From IMG/VR virus record IMGVR_UViG_3300029394_000152: a stretch of 64,000 nt of DNA. One strand, written 5' to 3'. Positions 4,046-64,000 of this stretch are shown piece by piece. The position numbers and the translations under genes were made by a program. Numbering within the stretch: position 1 is the stretch's first letter; every line of letters begins with the position of its first letter. The stretch comes from a virus. Under the pieces are notes generated by a model that saw nothing but the letters and a program-made list of their open reading frames with translations, searched no databases and was not told the DNA's origin.

Positions 4046-5035
4046 TTATGCGTTTTTGCTTTTATCCAGCGCGTCAAACTGCTGTAAGATCTGGGGGTCT
4101 TTCAGCTTGATGACCTTGCCGGAGAGGTAGTGCAGGGTGTTTTCCTCCGGTATATCCAGAAAGCTGATGCGCACCGCGCACAGTGCCTGCGTCTTGGTGC
4201 CGGTACGCTCGTTCATCTTGCGGTTGCCGTATTTGATATCGCCCAGCACCGGCTTGCCCAGATAGGCCAGATGGGCACGGATCTGGTGGGTGCGCCCGGT
4301 GACAAGGCCGATCTTGCACAGGGCAAAGGGGCCTGCGGTGCGCAGCACGTCCACGTCCGTAATGATCTGCTTGCGGCGCTCGTCCTGCGATTGATGGGCG
4401 TGGATGCTGACCTTGTTGTTTTTCTCGTCGTGCTCCCACCATGCGGTGAACCGCCCGGACTGCGGAATGCCCACCGTGATGGTGTAGTATTCCTTTTTCA
4501 GCAGGTCGGTGCGGATGATCTCGTTCATGTCCCGCAGGGCGGCGTAGTTCTTGGCAGCGATCACCAGCCCCTCTGTGCCGCGGTCCAGCCGGTTGCAGAT
4601 GCCGGGTTTGAAGCGGTTCTCACCGTGGGGGTCATACTCGCCCTTCTGGGTCAGGTACTGGGTAAAGGCATCCACCAGATTGGCATCGCCGGTGCGGTCG
4701 CTGTGGCAAAGCAGATGGGTGGGCTTGTACAGCACTGCAAGGTTTTCATCCTCGTAGATGACCGTTACCTTGGGCTGATTGGGCTGCTTTTTGGGGGCAG
4801 CCTTCTGCACCGGCTTTGCGCCCTCGGGCGGGAAGAACTCGTCGTTGATGTACAACTCGATCAGGTCTCCCGCCTGCAAACGGTATTCCGGTGCGGCCTT
4901 TTTGCCGTTCACCTTCACCCGCTTGTTGCGGAAACTCTTGTACAGCAGGCTGGTGGGAAAATCGCGGGTCACGCTCTGCACAAAGCGCGAAAGACGCACG
5001 CCGTCATCGTTGGCGGTGGCAGTAAATTGTTTCAT
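4046..5035 (-). CDS. RluA-family 23S rRNA pseudouridine synthase (RluD-like, S4 domain)
   Basis: N-terminal S4 RNA-binding region and the catalytic HQIRAH motif. Confidence 0.85.
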   Translation of the reverse strand: MKQFTATANDDGVRLSRFVQSVTRDFPTSLLYKSFRNKRVKVNGKKAAPEYRLQAGDLIELYINDEFFPPEGAKPVQKAAPKKQPNQPKVTVIYEDENLAVLYKPTHLLCHSDRTGDANLVDAFTQYLTQKGEYDPHGENRFKPGICNRLDRGTEGLVIAAKNYAALRDMNEIIRTDLLKKEYYTITVGIPQSGRFTAWWEHDEKNNKVSIHAHQSQDERRKQIITDVDVLRTAGPFALCKIGLVTGRTHQIRAHLAYLGKPVLGDIKYGNRKMNERTGTKTQALCAVRISFLDIPEENTLHYLSGKVIKLKDPQILQQFDALDKSKNA

Positions 5036-11085: not shown

Positions 11086-11163
11086 CCGGGTGTAGCGCAG
11101 TTTTGGTAGCGCGCTTGAATGGGGTTCAAGAGGCCGTGAGTTCGATTCTCGCCACTCGGACCA
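11086..11163 (+). tRNA. tRNA-Pro (GGG)
   Basis: cloverleaf with 7-bp acceptor, C1:G72 and A73 typical of bacterial tRNA-Pro, anticodon loop AUGGGGU, T-loop TTCGATT, encoded CCA. Confidence 0.8.
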
Positions 11164-12670
11164 GACGCATCCCAGACGAACTTTCTTTTTGTAAGTTTGT
11201 CTGGGATGTTTTTTTGTTTTTGTTAACGGTTTCGTCCGAAACATTAAAATTGATAACCAGTTCACGGTCGCTAACTACCATACTTGTTACAAAAGTGTTA
11301 ACAAGACGGCGACCATACTCCGGTGTGCGCTCGGACGGCTCCACCAAGAACTGTTCCAGCAGGAAAAGGTACTGTTCTTTGGTGAATACAACCGGCTTCT
11401 CCTTTTCCAGAGCAGAGAGCTGGAAGTTCAGAGTGCGCTCCTGTTCGCTCAGATCGTCCAGACGGGCGCACAGCTGCGCATTGGCGGTGCCGTTTTCGAT
11501 GGCGTCCAGAATGTTCTTACTACGGCGGCGGACATCGGCAAGGCTCTGTTCGATGGCTACGCGCTCGGCGTTTGGTTTTTCCGCATCAGCCTTTTGCACC
11601 TCGACCATAGCTTCGGCCAGCGCTTCCATGGCTTCCGGCTGCAAGAGGTGATCCGAGATGGACTGCATGACCTTTCCTTCCAGATCGTCCTTCGGGATGT
11701 TCCGCAGGTGGCAGTTCTTGTTGGGACAGGTGTAGTAGCGGTAGACCTCGCCGGTGGCGCTGTGGCCGCTCATGCCGCGCATGAGGGAACCGCAGGAGCA
11801 GTAGAGCTTGCCGGACAGGATATAGTCCGCTTTCGGTTCATTCTTTGCCTTGAGCTGACGGTTCAGTTTCAACATGGTTTGTGCCCTCTCCCAAAGTTCG
11901 TCGTCGATAATGGCCGGAATGGCCCCTTCAATGCGCACATCATACGATTTGCTGACGTACACGCCGCGATAGGCTTCGTTCTGGATGATCCGGGGAATGC
12001 TGCTCTTGTTGAAGGGGTTGCCCTGACTGGTACGCAGACCTTTGGCGTTGAGCTTATCTACAATAGAGGTGGCGGATTCCCCGGCGGCGTAATGCTCAAA
12101 GATGAAGCGGACGGTGGGAGCGGTCTTTTCATCAATGACAAACCGTTTGTGTTCGTCCGTTTTCAGGCCAAGGGCACGGCATCGGCTGATGGCCTGCCCC
12201 TTGAGGGCACTTTCTCTCATGCCGCGGCGCATCTTCTCGGCCAGCTCGGCAGAGTAGTATTCGGCCAGCGCTTCCATCACGCCCTCAATGATGATACCTT
12301 CCGCACCGGCGATATTGGATTCTGCGGCATAAACGATCTCAACGCCGTTGTCACGCAGGCGTTTCTTGTACACGGCAGAATCATAGCGGTTCCGGGCGAA
12401 GCGGTCTGTTTTCCAGCAAATCACCATATCGAATGCGCCCTTGTCGCTGTCAGTAATCATTTGCTGGAACGCTGCACGATCATCGGTCTTGCCGCTGATG
12501 TGGCGATCCACATATTCTTTCTGAATGGTCATGTTGTGCAGGCGGGCGTAGGTCTCGCAGTCCCGGCGCTGGCCCTCAATGGACTGCTCGGTCTGCCCGC
12601 TGCCGCCGCTGTATCTGTAATAGGCGACCAGCCGCACTTCGCCGCCCTTGTTGAATTTTCTTTTTGCCAT
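11126..12670 (-). CDS. large serine recombinase (prophage integrase)
   Basis: N-terminal resolvase catalytic domain (YYRYSGGSGQ...) with a long zinc-ribbon/coiled-coil C-terminal recombinase domain; last 13 codons overlap the tRNA-Pro 3' end. Confidence 0.9.
   Translation of the reverse strand: MAKRKFNKGGEVRLVAYYRYSGGSGQTEQSIEGQRRDCETYARLHNMTIQKEYVDRHISGKTDDRAAFQQMITDSDKGAFDMVICWKTDRFARNRYDSAVYKKRLRDNGVEIVYAAESNIAGAEGIIIEGVMEALAEYYSAELAEKMRRGMRESALKGQAISRCRALGLKTDEHKRFVIDEKTAPTVRFIFEHYAAGESATSIVDKLNAKGLRTSQGNPFNKSSIPRIIQNEAYRGVYVSKSYDVRIEGAIPAIIDDELWERAQTMLKLNRQLKAKNEPKADYILSGKLYCSCGSLMRGMSGHSATGEVYRYYTCPNKNCHLRNIPKDDLEGKVMQSISDHLLQPEAMEALAEAMVEVQKADAEKPNAERVAIEQSLADVRRRSKNILDAIENGTANAQLCARLDDLSEQERTLNFQLSALEKEKPVVFTKEQYLFLLEQFLVEPSERTPEYGRRLVNTFVTSMVVSDRELVINFNVSDETVNKNKKTSQTNLQKESSSGMRLVRVARIELTAS
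11167..11218 (+). terminator. rho-independent terminator after the tRNA
   Basis: perfect 10-bp inverted repeat catcccagac/gtctgggatg followed by TTTTTTTGTTTTTG; lies inside the 3' coding end of the recombinase on the other strand. Confidence 0.6.
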
Positions 12671-13527: not shown

Positions 13528-13773
13528 ATGGTATATCCGCTGGCTGAAAAGTATCTGCGTATCAGTGGCAAAACGGTAGAAGAACTGGCGGAAGAAGTCG
13601 GGACTTCCCGCAGTACGATGTACTACAAACTGAATGGCGGCTCAGACATGAGCGTGGAAATGGCTATCAAGGTCAAGGCGGCTTTGGGTGCAGAGGAAAG
13701 CATTGAAAAGCTCTTTGCACGCAGCGACGAACCCGAAAAGCAGGAGGGCGAAGCGCATGACGCTGAAACCTGA
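13528..13773 (+). CDS. Cro-like HTH regulator
   Basis: HTH GKTVEELAEEVGTSRSTMYYKL; GGAGGA RBS. Confidence 0.6.
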   Translation: MVYPLAEKYLRISGKTVEELAEEVGTSRSTMYYKLNGGSDMSVEMAIKVKAALGAEESIEKLFARSDEPEKQEGEAHDAET

Positions 13774-14065
13774 ACACATTGTAGAAGCGCTGAACAAAAC
13801 GCCGGAGCTGAAACGTCGCCTGATCCTGCGGATCATGGAAGAACTGCTGGACAGCGAAGCCTTTATGGAAGCGTACCCGCGCTTGTATGACCCGGCAGCG
13901 GCAGAGGCTTCACCGGAGTATAGGGAAAAGGTACGCGAAGAACTGGCGCAGATCATCGTGCGGCTGTTCCACAAAAACAAAGTTCGCCCGGACGATGCCG
14001 AAGAAGCATTGAACCGGGCGAGAGGAACTTATTTGGAAATGTATGTCCACTCCGATAAATCGTGA
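13757..14065 (+). CDS. hypothetical protein (copy A of a duplicated unit)
   Basis: ATGA-coupled start; N-terminus MTLKPEHIVEALNK is shared with the 14320 gene. Confidence 0.5.
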   Translation: MTLKPEHIVEALNKTPELKRRLILRIMEELLDSEAFMEAYPRLYDPAAAEASPEYREKVREELAQIIVRLFHKNKVRPDDAEEALNRARGTYLEMYVHSDKS

Positions 14066-14244: not shown

Positions 14245-14319
14245 ATTTATAACGCCTCCTTTCCGACTGATTATAGCACGGCGGGGAGGGGAGAGACAAC
14301 AAGCAGGAGGGCGGAGCGC

Positions 14320-14604
14320 ATGACGCTGAGACCTGAACACATTGAAGAAGCGCTGAACAAAAAGACGTTTGATGAAATCGACCCGGACGAAGTTCTGAAA
14401 CATTACGGCTACAAGCCGGAAGAAGTTCATTGCAACGGCGTCGGGATCGGTGTATGGCGCAAGGAAGAAGCGTTTCAGAAGTTGGGGGACATCGGGGCAT
14501 TCATGAGGTTTGTTGACCATAAAGCAAAAGCCCGGATCGAGTTCAACTACGACCCGGACTTTCCGGCGGCGTTGCTTATTACACACGCCGCCACAAAGAC
14601 GTAA
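14320..14604 (+). CDS. hypothetical protein (copy B of the duplicated unit)
   Basis: N-terminus MTLRPEHIEEALNK; AGGAGGG RBS. Confidence 0.5.
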   Translation: MTLRPEHIEEALNKKTFDEIDPDEVLKHYGYKPEEVHCNGVGIGVWRKEEAFQKLGDIGAFMRFVDHKAKARIEFNYDPDFPAALLITHAATKT

Positions 14605-14816: not shown

Positions 14817-15253
14817 AAATTCACCCCCTCCCCATTTTATATGTTCAAATTATAGCACGGCGGGGAGTACAAGCACAACAAGGAGCACGAGGGTATGAGC
14901 AAATGGCCGAAAAGATGAAGCCGGACAAGCTGACGCTGGATGTCCGGCAGGCCGACGCCGCGGGGCTGTCCTACGGCAGGTGGAGATTTGAAGAAACCGC
15001 GCGCAAACGCAAGGAAAAAGAGATTATCCACCGCCAGTGCGAAGAACGGCGGCGTCGGCGAGATGAAGCATTATCTGGCAAGGGCTGAAAGAACACGCCA
15101 GAGCGGCCCGCATGGGCAGGCGGTATGTCTGACACCGCCTTTATATGGTGCGGCCAGTGCAGGCGGGGAGCGTCAAGCCCCGCCGCCCGGTGTCAACTCC
15201 GGGACACACCACCATATCCGAAAATTTACCTGCAAGCAGAAAGGACAAAGAGT

Positions 15254-21663: not shown

Positions 21664-21671
21664 CCTTTTGG

Positions 21672-21700
21672 AGCCGCCCGGTGCGGCGGCTCCTTTTTAT
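21672..21700 (+). terminator. rho-independent terminator
   Basis: ggagccgcc-cggtg-cggcggctcc followed by TTTTTAT. Confidence 0.55.
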
Positions 21701-21777: not shown

Positions 21778-21963
21778 ATGGCAAAGTTCAGCATCATGCT
21801 GTTCGGCTTTGACAGCTACACAAAAAGCAGGATGTGGCTGCCGTATAAGCTGGAAGCGGAAAAGGCCGATGCGGCAGTCCGCGAAGCGCGTGCGCGGGCA
21901 GGGAGAGCCTACCCGGAATTTGTAGAAGATGAAAGACCTGATGTGGAGGTGGTAAAAAGATGA
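21778..21963 (+). CDS. hypothetical protein
   Basis: AAGGGAG RBS; 61 aa. Confidence 0.4.
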   Translation: MAKFSIMLFGFDSYTKSRMWLPYKLEAEKADAAVREARARAGRAYPEFVEDERPDVEVVKR

Positions 21964-22610
21964 AACTTTCTGCACTGGCTGCCCAAATCAAAAGCTGCGG
22001 TCATTGTGAGGTAATCAACAACGGCGGAAGGATTTTTGTTGGCACGGGAAGTGCTTTCTACTGCATGGACGGCTACCCCAGAACGCAGGATGCGGGAGAA
22101 CTGGGCGCTATGCTGGGTATTCCGCAGAAGAAGATGAAAAACATCTTCTATCACGAGGAATGCACAATCGACGGGAAACTGTACGGCGTAAAGTGGGACG
22201 ACGAACCGGAACATGAAGGAAATACCTCTGAAATCAAAACTCGGATCGCGGTCAACGGAGAAGAACTTATCGCGTTGCGAAATCCTGATGGCAGTGTTGG
22301 TTTCACCCGGTCGGAGTTGCTGAAACCGGTGGAAGGTGAACTGAACAAGGAGTTTGCACAAATTTGTGTGCGTCCTGCCAATCAGGACTGCAGGTTCATC
22401 TATGCCATAAAAGACGGCATGATCCTTCGGGCGTTGATAGCGCCTATGAACATCAAGGACGATGTGGCGGATGATCTGGACGAGATCATCGCGGAACTGA
22501 TGTCCAGACGGCAGCAAAATATCGTCAAAAAAATGCACGACGATTTGCAGGACGTGATTGCACAGGAAACTGCAGAGAAAGCCGCGCAGGTTGAAAACGA
22601 ACAGGAATAA
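21960..22610 (+). CDS. hypothetical protein
   Basis: ATGA-coupled start; 216 aa. Confidence 0.5.
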   Translation: MKLSALAAQIKSCGHCEVINNGGRIFVGTGSAFYCMDGYPRTQDAGELGAMLGIPQKKMKNIFYHEECTIDGKLYGVKWDDEPEHEGNTSEIKTRIAVNGEELIALRNPDGSVGFTRSELLKPVEGELNKEFAQICVRPANQDCRFIYAIKDGMILRALIAPMNIKDDVADDLDEIIAELMSRRQQNIVKKMHDDLQDVIAQETAEKAAQVENEQE

Positions 22611-22628: not shown

Positions 22629-23276
22629 ATGAGCAAGATTTTGAAAAGCACAACTTTGGGCAATGTGAAAAATGGCGGCATCTTCAAGGCACTGGGCAAG
22701 GAGTTTGTGAAGCTGGATGCAGACGAACACGGCTGTCTGGTGCTGGCAAAGGACATTTGGACGAAAATGCCGTTCCGTGATGGTGACGACCCGGAGTGTC
22801 CCAACGATCTGCGCCGGAGCGATGTCATGAAGTATTTGAGTGACCGTTTCACAGAGTTTGTCCAGAGAGGAACGCCGCTGGACACTTTCATTCCGTTCAA
22901 GATCGACCTGCAGGACACAACCGGACAGACCGAATACGGAACCGTTGAATACAGAATCGGCCTGTTGACCCTGCGTCAGTATGGAAAGTATTGGCGGCTG
23001 ATCCCGAAGGTAGATACGCCGTGGTGGTTGGCGACGCCTTACGGTACGCCGAATTGCTCTCCGTACACCGACGGTAGCAACAACGTCTGGGTCGTCGGCA
23101 CCGATGGCTCCTACTACTACTACTGGTACTACAACTCCTATGGTGTTCGCCCCGCTTTGTACTTTCCCTCTACACTCTGGGTCTCTACCGAGGATGAAGG
23201 AGAAGCCGGGTTTTGCCTCGCCGATGTTCCATTGGATGATCTGCTGGCTGAAATCAAGAGCCGGGCGGAGGAATAA
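22629..23276 (+). CDS. DGR target protein 1 (C-terminal VR, probable C-type-lectin-like fold)
   Basis: C-terminal about 100 nt matches the TR near 61.6 kb except at template adenines; VR peptide ends ...NSYGVRPA, as in target 2. Confidence 0.7.
   Translation: MSKILKSTTLGNVKNGGIFKALGKEFVKLDADEHGCLVLAKDIWTKMPFRDGDDPECPNDLRRSDVMKYLSDRFTEFVQRGTPLDTFIPFKIDLQDTTGQTEYGTVEYRIGLLTLRQYGKYWRLIPKVDTPWWLATPYGTPNCSPYTDGSNNVWVVGTDGSYYYYWYYNSYGVRPALYFPSTLWVSTEDEGEAGFCLADVPLDDLLAEIKSRAEE
23056..23156 (+). repeat. DGR variable repeat VR1
   Basis: about 100 nt aligned to the TR; all 19 mismatches sit at TR adenines (for example AAC to TAC, GAC, GTC, GGC, AGC); shares the 3' GC-rich ctcctatggtgttcgccccgct. Confidence 0.75.
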
Positions 23277-29964: not shown

Positions 29965-30070
29965 GGTTCATAGCTCCTTTTCGTTTTCGTGATGTTCCCG
30001 ACATTTATGCCGGGAAGATGGGGCGGGGCCGCTTTGAATCGGTGCGGCCCTGCTGGGGTGTCCGCTTTTA

Positions 30071-30991: not shown

Positions 30992-31083
30992 AATTCGTTT
31001 GCTCCTTTTCGCGTTTCGTGTTGTGCCTTTCGGCTGGGATCGGGTCGCTTTACGGTGCGGCCCGTCAAGGTATCCGGCGCGGA

Positions 31084-31569
31084 TCAGATGCACCACGGCG
31101 CGGCGTTGTATGCTGCATTCTGCTGGGCGGCGAATGCGTACAAGTGGTTTGAAGTCTTTACAAGCGCTTTCTGTAAATTCGTGTCTGCCGTGGCCTGTTC
31201 TTCGCACTGGTAAATGTAGCAGTCAAGCAGCTTCAGGAATTTGAAGAAATCAGCATCGAGAAAATAATGCTCGTTGTAGTCCAGACGGTGCAGCAGGTGC
31301 GGCACATTGTCCGGAATGGCTGGCACTTCGTCGGTTTCGTCCGGCTCTGCCTTATAGCGCCCTTCATACGCGGCTTCGTTGTGCCGGTACAGAACGGGGT
31401 AGATTCGACGGTCGTCATACAGAAAATCGTGCGGGTATTTGCAAGCGCCCAGAGCGTCGCGCAATTCGTCGGCGGCGGAAAGCTGGCACATTTCGGATTG
31501 ATTGAGCAGGTACGACAGACCGTGCGCAACGGTGGCGATGTGGGCGGGGGAAAGCATCATGCAAGACAT
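31084..31569 (-). CDS. hypothetical protein (cassette array member)
   Basis: 161 aa; AGGAGG RBS. Confidence 0.45.
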   Translation of the reverse strand: MSCMMLSPAHIATVAHGLSYLLNQSEMCQLSAADELRDALGACKYPHDFLYDDRRIYPVLYRHNEAAYEGRYKAEPDETDEVPAIPDNVPHLLHRLDYNEHYFLDADFFKFLKLLDCYIYQCEEQATADTNLQKALVKTSNHLYAFAAQQNAAYNAAPWCI

Positions 31570-31689
31570 AAATTCAAGCCTCCTGTTTTCGTTTTTCGTG
31601 TTTCGTGACGATCCCCCGGCGGGGTGCCGGTGGGAAGTGGGGCGGGGCCGCTTTGAACGGTGCGGCCCTGCTGGGGTCTCCGTTTCGTG

Positions 31690-32631: not shown

Positions 32632-32735
32632 GGTAAATACTTCCTTTCAATTTTTGTTGTGGTTCTTCCCGGCGGGGCCGGGTGGATGGGATCGGGTCGC
32701 TTTTCGGTGCGGCCCGTCAAGGTATCCGGCGGGGA

Positions 32736-32948
32736 TCATGCGAGAAGTTCAGCGGCGGCGGTTTGATAGTCGGGAAACTCGTAGAACGTGCGCTGTTCGT
32801 CGTTCGTGTTCTCGTTCGTGATGCGGGCGACGATCCGCCGCCCCGTGTTCATGTCCCACCCCTCAAGCCGGAACCCGGCGGACAACAGGCGGCGGGCGGC
32901 GTGGTTTTCGTTGCGGCATTCGTTGCGGATTTCTTCAAGGGTTTTCAT
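32736..32948 (-). CDS. hypothetical small protein (cassette array member)
   Basis: 70 aa; AAAGGAG RBS. Confidence 0.4.
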   Translation of the reverse strand: MKTLEEIRNECRNENHAARRLLSAGFRLEGWDMNTGRRIVARITNENTNDEQRTFYEFPDYQTAAAELLA

Positions 32949-33308: not shown

Positions 33309-33426
33309 GGTTGTTTCTCCTTTTCGTTTCGTGGTGTGGCTTTTCGTGCTTTTCCCCGGCTATTGTCGGGGCGTGGGATCGGGTCGCTTTTCGTGGTGCG
33401 GCCCGTCAAGGTATCCGGGGCGGCGT

Positions 33427-33831
33427 TCATGCCGGAATGTTGTAAATCTCGTTGAAGATGTCCAGCGCGTCGAGATCGGCGGCTTTCTGTCGTGCTGCAT
33501 TCACCGCGCCGCGGTCGTCGTGGCCGTTGAAGTGGTACGCTTCAATAAAGGCGTTGCGGATCAGATCGGCGGTGTGCTGGTGCTCCTGCAGCGCTTCCCA
33601 TTCGGCCCGGTCACGGATCAAAATTGTACAAGTCCATGCGCAAGAGCTGAAAGCCTGCAGAACGTCAACGTGAAACGATTTGCACCGGTTCAGCGCGGCG
33701 GTGATTTGGTCGCGCTCCTTGCGATCCATCGGAACGATGGAATAGGCGGGAATGTACCAGCCAGAAACGGGGGAGATGTTCCACCCGTGCCGGGCGGCGA
33801 TCTGGTTTACTTTCTTGTCAAATGCGGTCAT
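33427..33831 (-). CDS. hypothetical protein (cassette array member)
   Basis: 134 aa from the MTAFDKK start; AAAGGAG RBS. Confidence 0.45.
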   Translation of the reverse strand: MTAFDKKVNQIAARHGWNISPVSGWYIPAYSIVPMDRKERDQITAALNRCKSFHVDVLQAFSSCAWTCTILIRDRAEWEALQEHQHTADLIRNAFIEAYHFNGHDDRGAVNAARQKAADLDALDIFNEIYNIPA

Positions 33832-35476: not shown

Positions 35477-36238
35477 ATGCCGAAGCGGAACGACAAGCGC
35501 GACACCGCCAAGGCTGAGTACATCAAGCGGCGGCGGTCGGGCGAGAAAGTAAATCTCAAAGACCTTGCCGAAAAACTGGGCGTGACATACGGCACCGTCC
35601 GCAACTGGAAACGCATTGACCAATGGGACGATGCGGTGGAGCGCAAGCGCGGGGGACAGCCCGGAAACAAAAACAGCCGGGGCAAGAGGAATGCCAAGGG
35701 CAATCCCGGCGGCGGTGCGCCGAACGGAAACACCAACGCAGAGAAGGACGGTGCATATAGCACGGTTCACCTTGAACGTTTGAGCCAAGAGGAACGGGAC
35801 TGGCTGGATCAAATGCCGACCGGTGCAAACGAGAACAACATTTATGAGTTGAAGCTGCTTCGGATTCAGCAGCGGCACATCATGGAACGGATCGCAGAGT
35901 ATGAAAGCTGCGACCCGGAAAAGCTGTTCACTGCATCCATCACCGATATGCGAAAACCGGGAAAGGACAAAGACGGGAAGCAGGCGGACGGAGCTGTGCA
36001 GAAGATGGTCATGGATAACAAGGACAGTGCCTTTGTTCGAGTGACCCAGCTGCGGGAGGCCCTGAACAAGGTCTCCGGCAGAATTATTTCCCTGACCACA
36101 CAAATCCGTCAGCAGGAAGAATTTGAAAAACGGTACGCTCTGGAACTGGAACGCCTTGACATTGCAAAGATGCGGGCGACCGGTGAGGTGGATGTAGACC
36201 CGGAGGGAGGGACAGAGGATGAAACTGTACACGACTAA
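35477..36238 (+). CDS. terminase small subunit
   Basis: N-terminal HTH LKDLAEKLGVTYGTVRNWK and coiled-coil C-terminus; sits upstream of terL. Confidence 0.7.
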   Translation: MPKRNDKRDTAKAEYIKRRRSGEKVNLKDLAEKLGVTYGTVRNWKRIDQWDDAVERKRGGQPGNKNSRGKRNAKGNPGGGAPNGNTNAEKDGAYSTVHLERLSQEERDWLDQMPTGANENNIYELKLLRIQQRHIMERIAEYESCDPEKLFTASITDMRKPGKDKDGKQADGAVQKMVMDNKDSAFVRVTQLREALNKVSGRIISLTTQIRQQEEFEKRYALELERLDIAKMRATGEVDVDPEGGTEDETVHD

Positions 36239-60952: not shown

Positions 60953-61543
60953 ATGACTGAACAACCGTTTCTGGTTGGCAGCAAAGCGCGGGAGCTTCTG
61001 AGATATACACAGAGGGCGACCCGCATCGTTTCGGATGACATCAGCCGTAGCGATGCCCGAAAAGTATTTCAGAAAGCCGCTGCGCTTGAGGACATCCGGG
61101 AAATCAAGCAGGTCTGCACCACCGCTGTCCATGCTCTCGATACGAGGGAGAAGGAGGGCTTCACGAAAAGCACCTTCAACCTCTACGGCAGGGACATCAG
61201 GGAGATAGCCAAGAAGATTCTGCTGGATGCCCATGCGGCCAACAACGTGAACTTCGCCACGGAGTACGACAAGCGGATTGAAAAGATCGGTGAGGTCGTG
61301 GACGGCTGTTCTCTGCTGCTGGAATATCTGACCCTCTGCACGGAGGATGGTATCATCAGCACCAAGAAAGCCGGTATCTGGACAAAGAAGATCACGGATG
61401 TAAAATACCCGGCCATGAAGTGGCTCAAGTCTGAACGTGGCCGGGCAGAAAATCTCCGGCAGGAAGCAGAGAAGAAACGGCTTGAAATGCTTGTCAAAGC
61501 ACTTCGGGCCGTCTTTGCCCAGCAGGAGCAGAAAACGGCATAA
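60953..61543 (+). CDS. helical protein upstream of the TR (candidate DGR accessory protein, Avd-like by position)
   Basis: 196-aa helical protein ending 43 nt before the TR; no recognisable Avd motif. Confidence 0.25.
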   Translation: MTEQPFLVGSKARELLRYTQRATRIVSDDISRSDARKVFQKAAALEDIREIKQVCTTAVHALDTREKEGFTKSTFNLYGRDIREIAKKILLDAHAANNVNFATEYDKRIEKIGEVVDGCSLLLEYLTLCTEDGIISTKKAGIWTKKITDVKYPAMKWLKSERGRAENLRQEAEKKRLEMLVKALRAVFAQQEQKTA

Positions 61544-61585
61544 CAGGAAACTGTTTTGCAATAGGGGTACGGTTTATATTCTGAC

Positions 61586-61705
61586 GCTGCCATTTGGTGG
61601 CTGCGCTCTCCGAACACCAACAATAACAACAACGTCTGGAACGTCAACACCGATGGCTCCAACAACAACAACTGGTACAACAACTCCTATGGTGTTCGCC
61701 CCGCT
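61586..61705 (+). repeat. DGR template repeat (TR)
   Basis: non-coding 120 nt, AAC-rich, near-identical to VR1 and VR2 except at adenines; followed by a distinct 3' end (IMH*-like) ctgatggaacc. Confidence 0.8.
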
Positions 61706-61875
61706 CTGATGGAACCGTGTGACGAGTAGGCATAAGCTGAAAGCAGTGCGCCCATCAAAGGAAACCGCATCCTGTCGCTTGCCGATGCAGGCAAGTGATA
61801 AATACATCCCGCTGAGGTGGGCCATCCCTGCCGGATGCAGCCCACTACCGTAACGCGAACCAGCGGAGGGTCATT

Positions 61876-63105
61876 TTGACATACGAAGAACTGTGCAGCT
61901 TTGAGGTGCTTTACAAAGCCTACCTTGAAGCCCGGAAGGGAAAGCGCAGTAAAAGCAAAACAATCGAGTACGAGGCGCAGGCGCTGGCCTGCACGGAAAA
62001 GCTCTCCCGTAAGCTGGCTGTCTGCAATGTGCGGCAGCCAGACGGGAGCATTCGGCAGCAGATACGCTATGTGCCAAGTAAGTTTGAGGTCTTTGCCGTC
62101 TACGAGCCGAAGCGCCGCATGGTACACGCCCCCGCATTTGTGGACAAGGTGGTGCTGCACGCTCTGGTCGATAACATCCTGTATGATGCCCTGACAAAGA
62201 GCTTTATCCGGGACAGCCACGCCAGCCAGACCGGAAAAGGCACAGACGACGGCCTGATGCGCCTGAAAACCCACATGGTGGACTATTACCGCCGTGAGGG
62301 CCACGGCGCGGACGGCTGGGTGCTGAAAGGCGACGTGCGGCATTTCTTCGCCAGCATCGACCACCGGAAGCTAAAACGCAAGCTCAAAGCCGTGCTGGAC
62401 AAGCGCGGCGTTGACCCGCGTGTCTATGAGCTGCTTTGCATCTACATCGACGTGATGGAGGACGGCTTGCCGCTGGGCTACCAGACGAGCCAGCTTTTCG
62501 CCCTCATGTTTTTGGACGAGTTCGACCACATCATCAAAGAAAAGTACCGCATCAAATACTATGGCCGATACATGGATGATTTCTACATCATCTGTTCGGA
62601 CAAGCAGAAGTTGCAGTGCATCTTGAAGGATGTGCGGGCACTCATGGACGAGTACGGTTTGGAGCTGAACCAGAAAACGGCTATCTTCCCACTGAGGAAC
62701 GGCATTGATTTTCTGGGGTTCCATTCGTATCTGACTGAAACCGGCGCGGTCGTCCAAAAGCTGCGTCGGGACAGCGCCAAACGGATGAAAGCCAAAATCA
62801 GGCATTGGGAAAAGGCATACCCGGCGGGTGAGGTAACAAAGGAAGAAATCCTTTGTAGCTTCCTTGCATGGGATGCCCATGCTGCACACGGCGATACCTA
62901 CGCCCTGCGCCGCCAGTACGCCGACCGTCTGGGAAAATTGCTCAACTGCACAATTTCCATCCACCGAAAAATCAACTCGAATAAACTCGCACGAGACAGG
63001 CGACGCGCCCGGCAATGCCGCTGCATCTACAAGAAGCAGCACAAAGCCTTGACCGCCGCTGTCTCGCAGAACACAAGACCCATTGGCGTTTTGCCGTGGG
63101 CCTGA
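61876..63105 (+). CDS. DGR reverse transcriptase
   Basis: RT motifs including YMDDF and the DGR-specific LGYQTSQ (LGxxxSQ); no maturase or endonuclease domain; TTG start with a GGAGGG RBS; TR immediately upstream. Confidence 0.85.
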   Translation: MTYEELCSFEVLYKAYLEARKGKRSKSKTIEYEAQALACTEKLSRKLAVCNVRQPDGSIRQQIRYVPSKFEVFAVYEPKRRMVHAPAFVDKVVLHALVDNILYDALTKSFIRDSHASQTGKGTDDGLMRLKTHMVDYYRREGHGADGWVLKGDVRHFFASIDHRKLKRKLKAVLDKRGVDPRVYELLCIYIDVMEDGLPLGYQTSQLFALMFLDEFDHIIKEKYRIKYYGRYMDDFYIICSDKQKLQCILKDVRALMDEYGLELNQKTAIFPLRNGIDFLGFHSYLTETGAVVQKLRRDSAKRMKAKIRHWEKAYPAGEVTKEEILCSFLAWDAHAAHGDTYALRRQYADRLGKLLNCTISIHRKINSNKLARDRRRARQCRCIYKKQHKALTAAVSQNTRPIGVLPWA

Positions 63106-63121: not shown

Positions 63122-64000
63122 CAATGGCAAACGTAAAACTGAGCACAAAGGCCGTTGGCAGCATCGTCAAGATCAAGGTCAACGGCGCGGCCAAAGATTT
63201 CATCATCGTGCATCAGGGCTTGCCCAGCAGCGCCTATGATGCAAGCTGCAACGGCGTCTGGGTTGTGATGAAGGACATCTACACCACGAGCACGTTCGGT
63301 AACAACAACTCTTACAAGGATTCCGGCATTCACACCTATCTGAACGGAACCTTCTACAACCTGATTGATTCTCAGATTCGAGCGGTTATCAAGCAGGTCA
63401 AGATTCCGTATACCAACAGCGGCGTTCAGAGCGGCGCAAACGGCCTTTCGACCAAGGTGTTCCTGCTGTCTGGCACGGAGGTCGGGTTCAGCGGCGTAAG
63501 CTACATGAACACCGAAGGTGCAAAGCTGTCCTATTTCGATAGCGCAAGCAAGCGTGTCGCATATAACGGCAGCAGCGCTGCCATTTGGTGGCTGCGCTCT
63601 CCGTACACCGACTATGTCAGCAGCGTCTGGTTCGTCTACACCGATGGCTCCCACGGCAACATCTGGTGCAACTACTCCTATGGTGTTCGCCCCGCTTTTG
63701 TACTTCCCTCTGAACTCGTGGTCTCTGACGACGGCACGGTCAGCACGAACACTGCACCGGCCATCAACACCAGCTCCACGAATCTGGGGGAGAAGAACGC
63801 GCCCTTCAACTTCGGATACACCGTTACCGATGCCGACGGCGATACTCTGACCGTCACCGAAAAGATGGACGGAAAGACCACCGCCACCCGCACAGGCGTT
63901 GCAAGCGGTACTGCACTGACCTTCAGGCAGGGCAGTACCGCCGACGGCTTCCGGCGCATCCTCAACGGCAGCCACACCATCCAGATCACGGCCAGCGACG
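63122..64000 (+). CDS. DGR target protein 2 (VR2-containing; continues past the window end with Ig-like repeats)
   Basis: VR2 encodes AAIWWLRSPYTDYVSSVWFVYTDGSHGNIWCNYSYGVRPA; partial at the window edge. Confidence 0.75.
63577..63696 (+). repeat. DGR variable repeat VR2
   Basis: 120 nt; all differences from the TR fall at TR adenines; shared 3' ctcctatggtgttcgccccgct, then an IMH-like tttgtacttccctctg also present after VR1. Confidence 0.8.

Follow-up and report, generated by a model that had tools for sequence, protein, structure and literature searches.

Can the template repeat (TR) of a single DGR diversify a gene that lies 38.5 kb away, as well as the target beside its own reverse transcriptase (RT), and what kind of protein would such a remote target be? 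The question is raised by a stretch of 64,000 nt (the window), in which the initial annotation had recognised a second DGR target region (VR1) in the 3′ part of a small gene (target 1) located among early genes. The locus shares 95% nucleotide identity with Faecalibacterium phage FP_Toutatis and 96.5% with phage Lelie and, by this identity, the window is a Toutatisvirus-like Faecalibacterium prophage, whose left end is marked by a serine integrase gene and whose right end lies beyond the window (Table 1). The DGR cassette is complete and comprises Avd, TR, RT and a cassette-proximal target (target 2, containing VR2). The Avd gene matches a PHROG of that name, and no Pfam match for Avd was found in the Pfam scan. 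The motif [LIV]GxxxSQ is a signature of DGR RTs, and the LGYQTSQ motif of the RT encoded here fits it. The TR sits inside an ORF (61437-61709, plus strand) whose counterpart in the RefSeq record of Toutatis (NC_047915, 49048-49200, gp80) is labelled 'DUF6273 domain-containing protein'; this label is an artefact of annotation that arises because translation of the TR yields the C-terminal DUF6273 motif.

Table 1 Position of the prophage and DGR features in the window, with the evidence for each
Feature	Position (nt)	Strand	Evidence and remarks
Serine integrase	11126..12670	-	phrog_95, 2e-115; counterpart of FP_Toutatis gp01; marks the left prophage end
Terminator-like hairpin after the prohibitin gene	21670..21693	+	9-bp stem with 8 G-C pairs, T tail; consensus scan only
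Target 1 gene	22629..23276	+	215 aa; divergent DUF6273, phrog_9958; conserved C-terminal helix
VR1	23056..23156	+	codes for residues 143-176; 14 mismatches to TR, all at TR adenines
VR1 3′ end, IMH-like	23136..23175	+	GC-rich; identical to TR and VR2, then VR-specific; by analogy to IMH/IMH* of BPP-1
Avd accessory protein	60953..61543	+	phrog_3206 'Avd protein of DGR', 1.4e-29; adjoins TR
Template repeat (TR)	61585..61705	+	part 61605-61705 templates VR1; whole repeat templates VR2
DGR reverse transcriptase, TTG start	61876..63105	+	Pfam RVT_1, 1.9e-19; LGYQTSQ and YMDD motifs read in the sequence
Target 2 gene (tentaclin / 'Hoc-like': DUF6273 and Ig-like domains)	63124..64000	+	Pfam DUF6273, 1e-38; phrog_10993, 8.8e-86; cut by the window end
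VR2	63576..63696	+	16 mismatches to TR, all at adenines

Three copies of a repeat of approximately 100-120 nt are present in the window, namely VR1, TR and VR2 (Table 1), and a repeat search combined with a search for the 21-nt end of the repeat ruled out a third VR. VR1 was aligned to positions 61605-61705 of the TR in an ungapped register (TR position minus 38549), confirming the coordinates 23056-23156 that had been assigned to it. The two sequences differ at 14 positions (7 A>T and 7 A>G), all 14 of which are adenines in the TR. The VR1 stretch of the TR contains 33 adenines and none of its 68 non-adenine positions differs, resulting in a hypergeometric probability of 1.6e-8 for all 14 mismatches falling on the 33 adenines. 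The initial annotation had listed 19 adenine-specific differences between VR1 and TR; the restriction to adenines was borne out, whereas the count was not, being 14 for VR1 and 16 for VR2. With the VR2 frame re-derived from the ATG at 63124, all substitutions in both VR1 and VR2 are located at codon positions 1 and 2.

At the 3′ end of the repeat, the 21-nt sequence TCCTATGGTGTTCGCCCCGCT occurs exactly three times in the window (in VR1, TR and VR2; 0 expected), and no further copy was detected in the window even when three mismatches were allowed. The base that follows it is C in the TR (61706) and T in both VR1 (23157) and VR2 (63697), and the TR and the VRs diverge beyond this point, consistent with the IMH-like 3′ end that had been noted for VR1. 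This layout is the one expected of an IMH/IMH* pair, and the element is called IMH-like as its function is assumed from phage BPP-1, where a GC-rich 3′ element likewise tells VR from TR. In BPP-1, a hairpin or cruciform is located downstream of the VR, whereas no significant hairpin or cruciform was found downstream of VR1 or VR2, the predicted DNA folds of 23140-23240 and 63680-63780 having z-scores of 0.56 and 0.14, respectively, against shuffled sequences. Such a structure downstream of the VR is not universal in DGRs.

At the 5′ end, homology to the TR extends over 101 nt in VR1 and 121 nt in VR2, in agreement with the previous estimates of about 100 and about 120 nt. VR1 homology begins at GCTCTCCG because target 1 has, upstream of this sequence, an insertion of 8 residues relative to target 2 (WWL-ATPYGTPNC-SP vs WWL-R-SP). 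GCTCTCCG constitutes the 8 nt before the first diversified adenine, at which 31 of 35 relatives carry a mutation; this pattern of variation shows homing to extend as far as an adenine that is 8 nt from the 5′ homology limit.

Variation of VR1 was analysed in 44 full-length target 1 orthologues, consisting of those of the window, Toutatis, Lelie and 41 IMG/VR contigs. Every one of the 44 carries a different VR1 between flanks that are near-invariant and, in the closely related group of 215-aa proteins, nucleotide diversity is 0.18 in VR1, relative to 0.013 upstream and 0.025 downstream. Per-site variation was computed on the 35 orthologues with a type-A VR1 (the TR type of the window), in which all 33 TR adenines vary and are mutated in 44% of cases on average, compared with 1% at non-adenine sites, with a spectrum of 282 A>G, 188 A>T and 40 A>C changes. 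Rare non-adenine changes are present in some VR1 copies (e.g. one T>A in Lelie), and the VR1 content of Lelie and Toutatis differs from that of the window at 13-17 adenine sites. Among distinct type-A copies, 44.6% of adenines are mutated in VR1 vs 47.5% in VR2, and the per-site profiles of the two are correlated (r=0.75). The initial annotation had proposed a search among relatives for VR1 variants, which are present at TR adenines in all 44 orthologues, and had named two observations that would speak against a second target: non-adenine substitutions, which amount to 0 of 68 positions in the window and 1% in the type-A orthologues (n=35), and a VR1 that is invariant while VR2 varies, which was not seen. 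Two clusters of the target 1 protein at 90% identity contain 9,787 and 4,980 member sequences. Several IMG/VR contigs (L047, L048, L050, L052 and L053) break off inside or beside VR1, and in some representative proteins (P0121-P0124) the match to target 1 ends at residues 137-162 and a different sequence follows; both look like assembly breaks or chimeras arising from VR microdiversity.

The TR is conserved, with type A being found in 57 identical copies among the loci fetched and being identical in Toutatis and Lelie. Seven of the 44 orthologues have another VR1 backbone, and two others have a VR1 of different length, with one extra codon in L023, matching TR length variants with an extra AAC, and a 12-nt deletion in L025, by which SYGV is lost. 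Among the TRs themselves, length variants were observed in L067 (+AAC) and L087 (-AAC), and the 5′ part of the TR copy of L099 already shows substitutions at several adenines. A second TR lineage (type B), together with a sub-variant B′, was retrieved from contigs carrying the other VR1 backbone by a pattern search in which the adenine sites were set to N, whereas two guessed TR-B sequences gave no match in IMG/VR. TR-B contains AACGAC and is followed by a different post-repeat sequence, CTCCGGCTG. In 11 genomes representing three TR types, VR1 has 0-1 non-adenine mismatches to the TR of its own genome and 3-12 to the other TRs. A more distant phage encodes a homologue with 58% identity, the VR1 of which shares its non-adenine backbone with the VR2 of that phage (B′ type), the comparison in this case being made to VR2 and not to a TR. 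The claim of the initial annotation that a single RT and TR diversify two proteins is supported by the adenine-only differences of VR1, by its variability being equal to that of VR2, and by its tracking of its own TR. With activity being read from population diversity, VR1 is very probably a genuine and currently used second target of the DGR of this Toutatisvirus-like prophage, and the same population evidence indicates repeated and recent rewriting of VR1 from its cognate TR.

The steps by which VR1 would be rewritten are taken from the established DGR mechanism. A complex of RT and Avd would copy TR-containing RNA to cDNA, inserting random nucleotides opposite adenines, and the cDNA would replace the VR from the shared GC-rich 3′ end up to the 5′ homology limit. 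The cDNA would act in trans on VR1, so that the 38.5 kb between TR and VR1 in the prophage would be immaterial. This distance is 38,549 nt in the integrated prophage and approximately 17.5 kb the other way round the circularised genome (by arithmetic on the Toutatis record), whereas in Toutatisvirus the second VR was placed 17,480 nt upstream of the TR in phage coordinates (Egorov & Atkinson, bioRxiv 10.1101/2024.10.15.618418); by arithmetic on the coordinates of the Toutatis record, 17,480 and 38,549 nt agree with each other if the genome is a circle of about 55 kb.

Two other origins of the resemblance between VR1 and TR were considered. VR1 could be a relic that is no longer diversified and that resembles the TR through the paralogy of targets 1 and 2, or through one ancient homing event. 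Such a history would be in keeping with the paralogy of the two targets over the whole DUF6273 domain, with the 5′ homology of VR1 being shorter than that of VR2, and with phage Lelie in culture, which shows no read-level variation at either VR (PMC11792537). However, the codons flanking the VRs of the two paralogues are only about 28% identical, compared with identity to the TR at 68 of 68 non-adenine VR1 positions; VR1 differs in 44 of 44 near-identical genomes, at TR adenines only, and changes together with the TR lineage. A relic is contradicted by this orthologue variation and TR-lineage concordance, and was rejected as very improbable. The variation of VR1 could also be generated by gene conversion, that is by recombination with VR2 or between co-infecting phages, in place of TR cDNA. 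Variation that is limited to TR adenines is a pattern that cannot arise de novo from recombining two diversified copies, and VR1 and VR2 of the same genome differ at most adenine sites; on these grounds gene conversion was rejected as an exceedingly remote prospect, even though VR1 and VR2 are homologous over 101 nt and have a common 3′ end, and recombinant patches are present elsewhere in the target 1 gene (around positions 200-260). Rewriting of VR1 from TR cDNA is therefore the reading used below.

The target 1 ORF encodes 215 aa, and VR1 (residues 143-176) is followed by 39 further residues; the small protein described at the outset was thus correctly sized, but its VR is located at the C-terminal end of the fold and not of the protein. 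Target 1 matches phrog_9958 along its full length. Its match to Pfam DUF6273 (PF19789) covers residues 131-178 only and, at 21.5 bits vs a cut-off of 23.5, is below the gathering threshold, whereas some orthologues have a precomputed PF19789 match and RefSeq calls Toutatis gp24 DUF6273. Target 1 and the DUF6273 domain of target 2 share 28% identity (E=8e-12), the two targets being paralogous across the whole domain, and both homology and fold are common to target 1 and bona fide DUF6273 domains. A library-wide family search returned 722 clusters at 50% identity (206 of them at E<=1e-10), mostly of 180-250 aa. Matches in BFVD are DUF6273 proteins of gut phages, and a PDB sequence search with target 1 gave noise only (best E=0.11). 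Target 1 is a single-domain protein of C-type-lectin fold, representing a divergent DUF6273.

The VR is positioned on a surface element at the C-terminal end of the C-lectin fold, where it forms a short helix and three strands. It is followed by an acidic, low-confidence linker and then by a helix (residues 202-214) with the motif (D/E)LLxE(I/L)xxR, which is kept in distant family members. The TR, read in the VR1 frame, contains 14 AAY (Asn) codons and 5 single-adenine codons, the VR1 part of the TR allowing approximately 3e19 stop-free protein variants, and Tyr prevails among the selected residues at the VR1 variable sites. With the diversified residues on a helix, on beta-strands and on loops where the compact C-lectin fold ends C-terminally, they most likely form a ligand-binding surface. 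The protein has a predicted mass of 24.6 kDa and is acidic (pI 4.8), and neither a hydrophobic or membrane segment nor a signal-like N-terminus was found in its sequence; from this composition we infer a cytoplasmic location. The tentaclin architecture (N-terminal C-lectin and Ig-like domains) is that of target 2 (phrog_10993) and is absent from target 1, which consists of a single domain and one short helix, with no N-terminal trimerisation or anchor domain.

Target 1 is located between methyltransferase and prohibitin genes on one side and a replication initiator and a Q-like regulator on the other. The packed plus-strand gene run to which it belongs starts after the hairpin that follows the prohibitin gene and continues via a 'transcriptional regulator', the replication initiator and a further regulator, the orthologue of which in Toutatis bears the annotation antiterminator Q, and the late operon begins downstream of this run with the small terminase at 35477. 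This gene order, upstream of the Q-like regulator and the late operon, agrees with the initial placement of target 1 among early genes and not tail genes and, given its position in an early operon, target 1 is probably expressed before the virion genes. The five flanking proteins examined have no Pfam match, and their PHROGs are mostly 'unknown function' families. The upstream neighbour (21960-22610, plus strand; 216 aa, phrog_24518), which is similar in size to target 1, was considered as a cryptic paralogue and rejected, with an hhalign probability of 0.4% and no overall similarity; the two have in common a 12-residue C-terminal motif alone (LDEIIAELMSRR vs LDDLLAEIKSRA), and this match is not significant (E=0.076).

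Two sets of repeats were observed elsewhere in the window. Five GC-rich, hairpin-containing repeats (30021-30067, 31032-31086, 31639-31685, 32684-32738 and 33373-33427), with the core GGGxCGC...GTGCGGCCC, are located in a region with a block of minus-strand genes (primase and others) and may be terminators or regulatory sites. Direct repeats approximately 570 nt apart (13738-13804 / 14301-14367, 93%; 14270-14306 / 14849-14885, 81%) are located in the region immediately to the right of the prophage end with the integrase and repressor, and their arrangement suggests duplicated small genes or regulatory units.

Distant homologues of target 1 were sought in IMG/VR with a back-translated WWLATPW motif. 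Several distant homologues lie on short contigs in which the context is uninformative. The same synteny is present around the 58%-identical homologue of the more distant phage. A cro-like HTH gene is found about 1 kb upstream of a 41%-identical homologue, opposite an HTH_3 repressor-like gene, and another homologue adjoins a DUF551 gene. Another phage lineage, represented by at least 10 contigs, has a tandem pair of phrog_9958 genes downstream of an SbcC-like nuclease gene, and the pair is followed by Avd, TR, RT and RecT where these are present and the locus reaches them. This places the DGR between the SbcC-like nuclease and RecT, i.e. in a recombination module, in L181 (2571-5392; IMG/VR 3300029332_000102) as well as in L164, L173, L182 and others; in L181, the TR is at approximately 4192-4262 and both small phrog_9958 genes have adenine-specific mismatches to it. 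Some members of the SbcC lineage have lost RT or Avd and keep the targets. In L160, L178, L179, L180 and L183 of this lineage, the small target leads to RecT directly or via an Avd remnant, with no RT between them. These RT-less members are paralleled by some Toutatisvirus genomes that, according to a published remark, retain both targets but not the DGR.

What target 1 does with its variable surface was considered in terms of a location inside or outside the virion. Target 1 could quite possibly be a virion receptor-binding protein, that is an Mtd-like C-lectin which docks to the tail via its C-terminal helix and whose diversification broadens host range or adhesion, a role that has been proposed previously (PMC10743442; bioRxiv 10.1101/2024.10.15.618418). 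The C-lectin fold with a VR on its surface, as in Mtd and TvpA, favours such a role, as does diversification as intense as that of the tentaclin target, and the family-wide (D/E)LLxE(I/L)xxR helix could be the docking element. However, target 1 is encoded in an early operon, upstream of the Q-like regulator and distant from the tail module, members of its family are located in early or recombination modules of several other phage lineages, and it has no N-terminal trimerisation or anchor domain. A large survey took unannotated viral DGR targets to be structural proteins; the early-module placement fits poorly with this assumption for the small phrog_9958 targets, as far as gene order can tell, and does not refute it.

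Rather more tentatively, the small phrog_9958 C-lectin targets, including target 1, might be early-expressed, cytoplasmic, hypervariable binding proteins that are not part of the virion, and their variable face might, with the same reserve, track a variable ligand that is intracellular or released, for instance a host factor for defence or exclusion, or a component of a competitor phage. In favour of this are the early-module placement kept in the window, in Toutatis and around the 58%-identical homologue with the same synteny, the position of the 41%-identical homologue near a cro-like HTH gene and of another beside the DUF551 gene, the tandem targets next to SbcC-like nuclease and RecT genes in at least 10 contigs of another lineage, and the acidic composition of target 1 with no signal peptide or membrane segment. 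However, the same region also contains other accessory genes (prohibitin family, 3D domain), and the C-lectin DGR targets characterised so far are surface-exposed.

The two-target DGR arrangement of Toutatis-like phages is already published. The original Toutatis paper described one DGR target and left its function unassigned, and phage Lelie was subsequently reported to have two VRs, in 'small' and 'large' DUF6273 targets, in a study that had too few cognate genomes for a test of population variation (PMC11792537). Lelie orf58 and FP_Toutatis gp24 (NC_047915) are the orthologues of target 1, with an identical TR, the same gene order, VR position and length of 215 aa, and differ from the gene of the window in VR1 content and in a recombinant patch around codons 70-80. 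As in the window, the Toutatisvirus TR lies between Avd and RT, with one VR in a Hoc-like gene downstream of the RT, and analysis of 173 Toutatisvirus genomes identified the second VR in a core gene that is present in 98.8% of the phages; the products of both VR-bearing genes are C-lectin-like DUF6273 proteins, and the early-module position of the core gene was not discussed (Egorov & Atkinson, bioRxiv 10.1101/2024.10.15.618418).

In other gut phages, too, a tentaclin has been described together with a small C-lectin target that consists of a single domain and carries a shorter VR (PMC10743442). Set side by side with target 1 by description, nd4_tgt2 and nd12_tgt2 (Baykov et al. 2023, PMC10743442) are likewise small, single-domain DUF6273 C-lectins, flanked by short helices, with a 3′ VR that is shorter than that of the tentaclin and one TR serving both targets. 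They also resemble target 1, in which Tyr prevails, in having Tyr and Ser enriched at their variable sites. They were described inside the DGR cassette, whereas target 1 is remote from it, in an early operon. Mtd of Bordetella phage BPP-1 resembles target 1 in its C-type-lectin fold, in a VR at the end of the fold and in adenine mutagenesis from a TR; however, Mtd-like receptor-binding proteins have N-terminal trimerisation domains and are encoded in the tail module, and neither applies to target 1. Target 1 also differs from TvpA of Treponema denticola and from the targets of other DGRs with several or remote targets, which are lipoproteins of bacterial surfaces and carry export signals; target 1 is encoded by a phage and lacks such a signal. 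In the IgA peptidase of Thomasclavelia ramosa (PDB 9qa6; PMC12402451), the N-terminal DUF6273 is a single domain within a protease that is secreted and anchored to the wall and, unlike target 1, it is not a DGR target.

To these systems the present analysis adds population evidence that the remote VR is diversified as actively as the cassette-proximal VR and that it is rewritten from the TR of its own genome, which was beyond the reach of the Lelie study. It further adds the minimal 5′ homology of 8 nt and the recurrent early-module placement of the phrog_9958 target family. These prophages are abundant in the gut and Lelie is inducible, and they would be a tractable system in which to address the function of target 1. 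Should the small C-lectin targets of early modules turn out not to be structural, it would be necessary to revise the common view that a phage DGR target lacking annotation is a virion protein.
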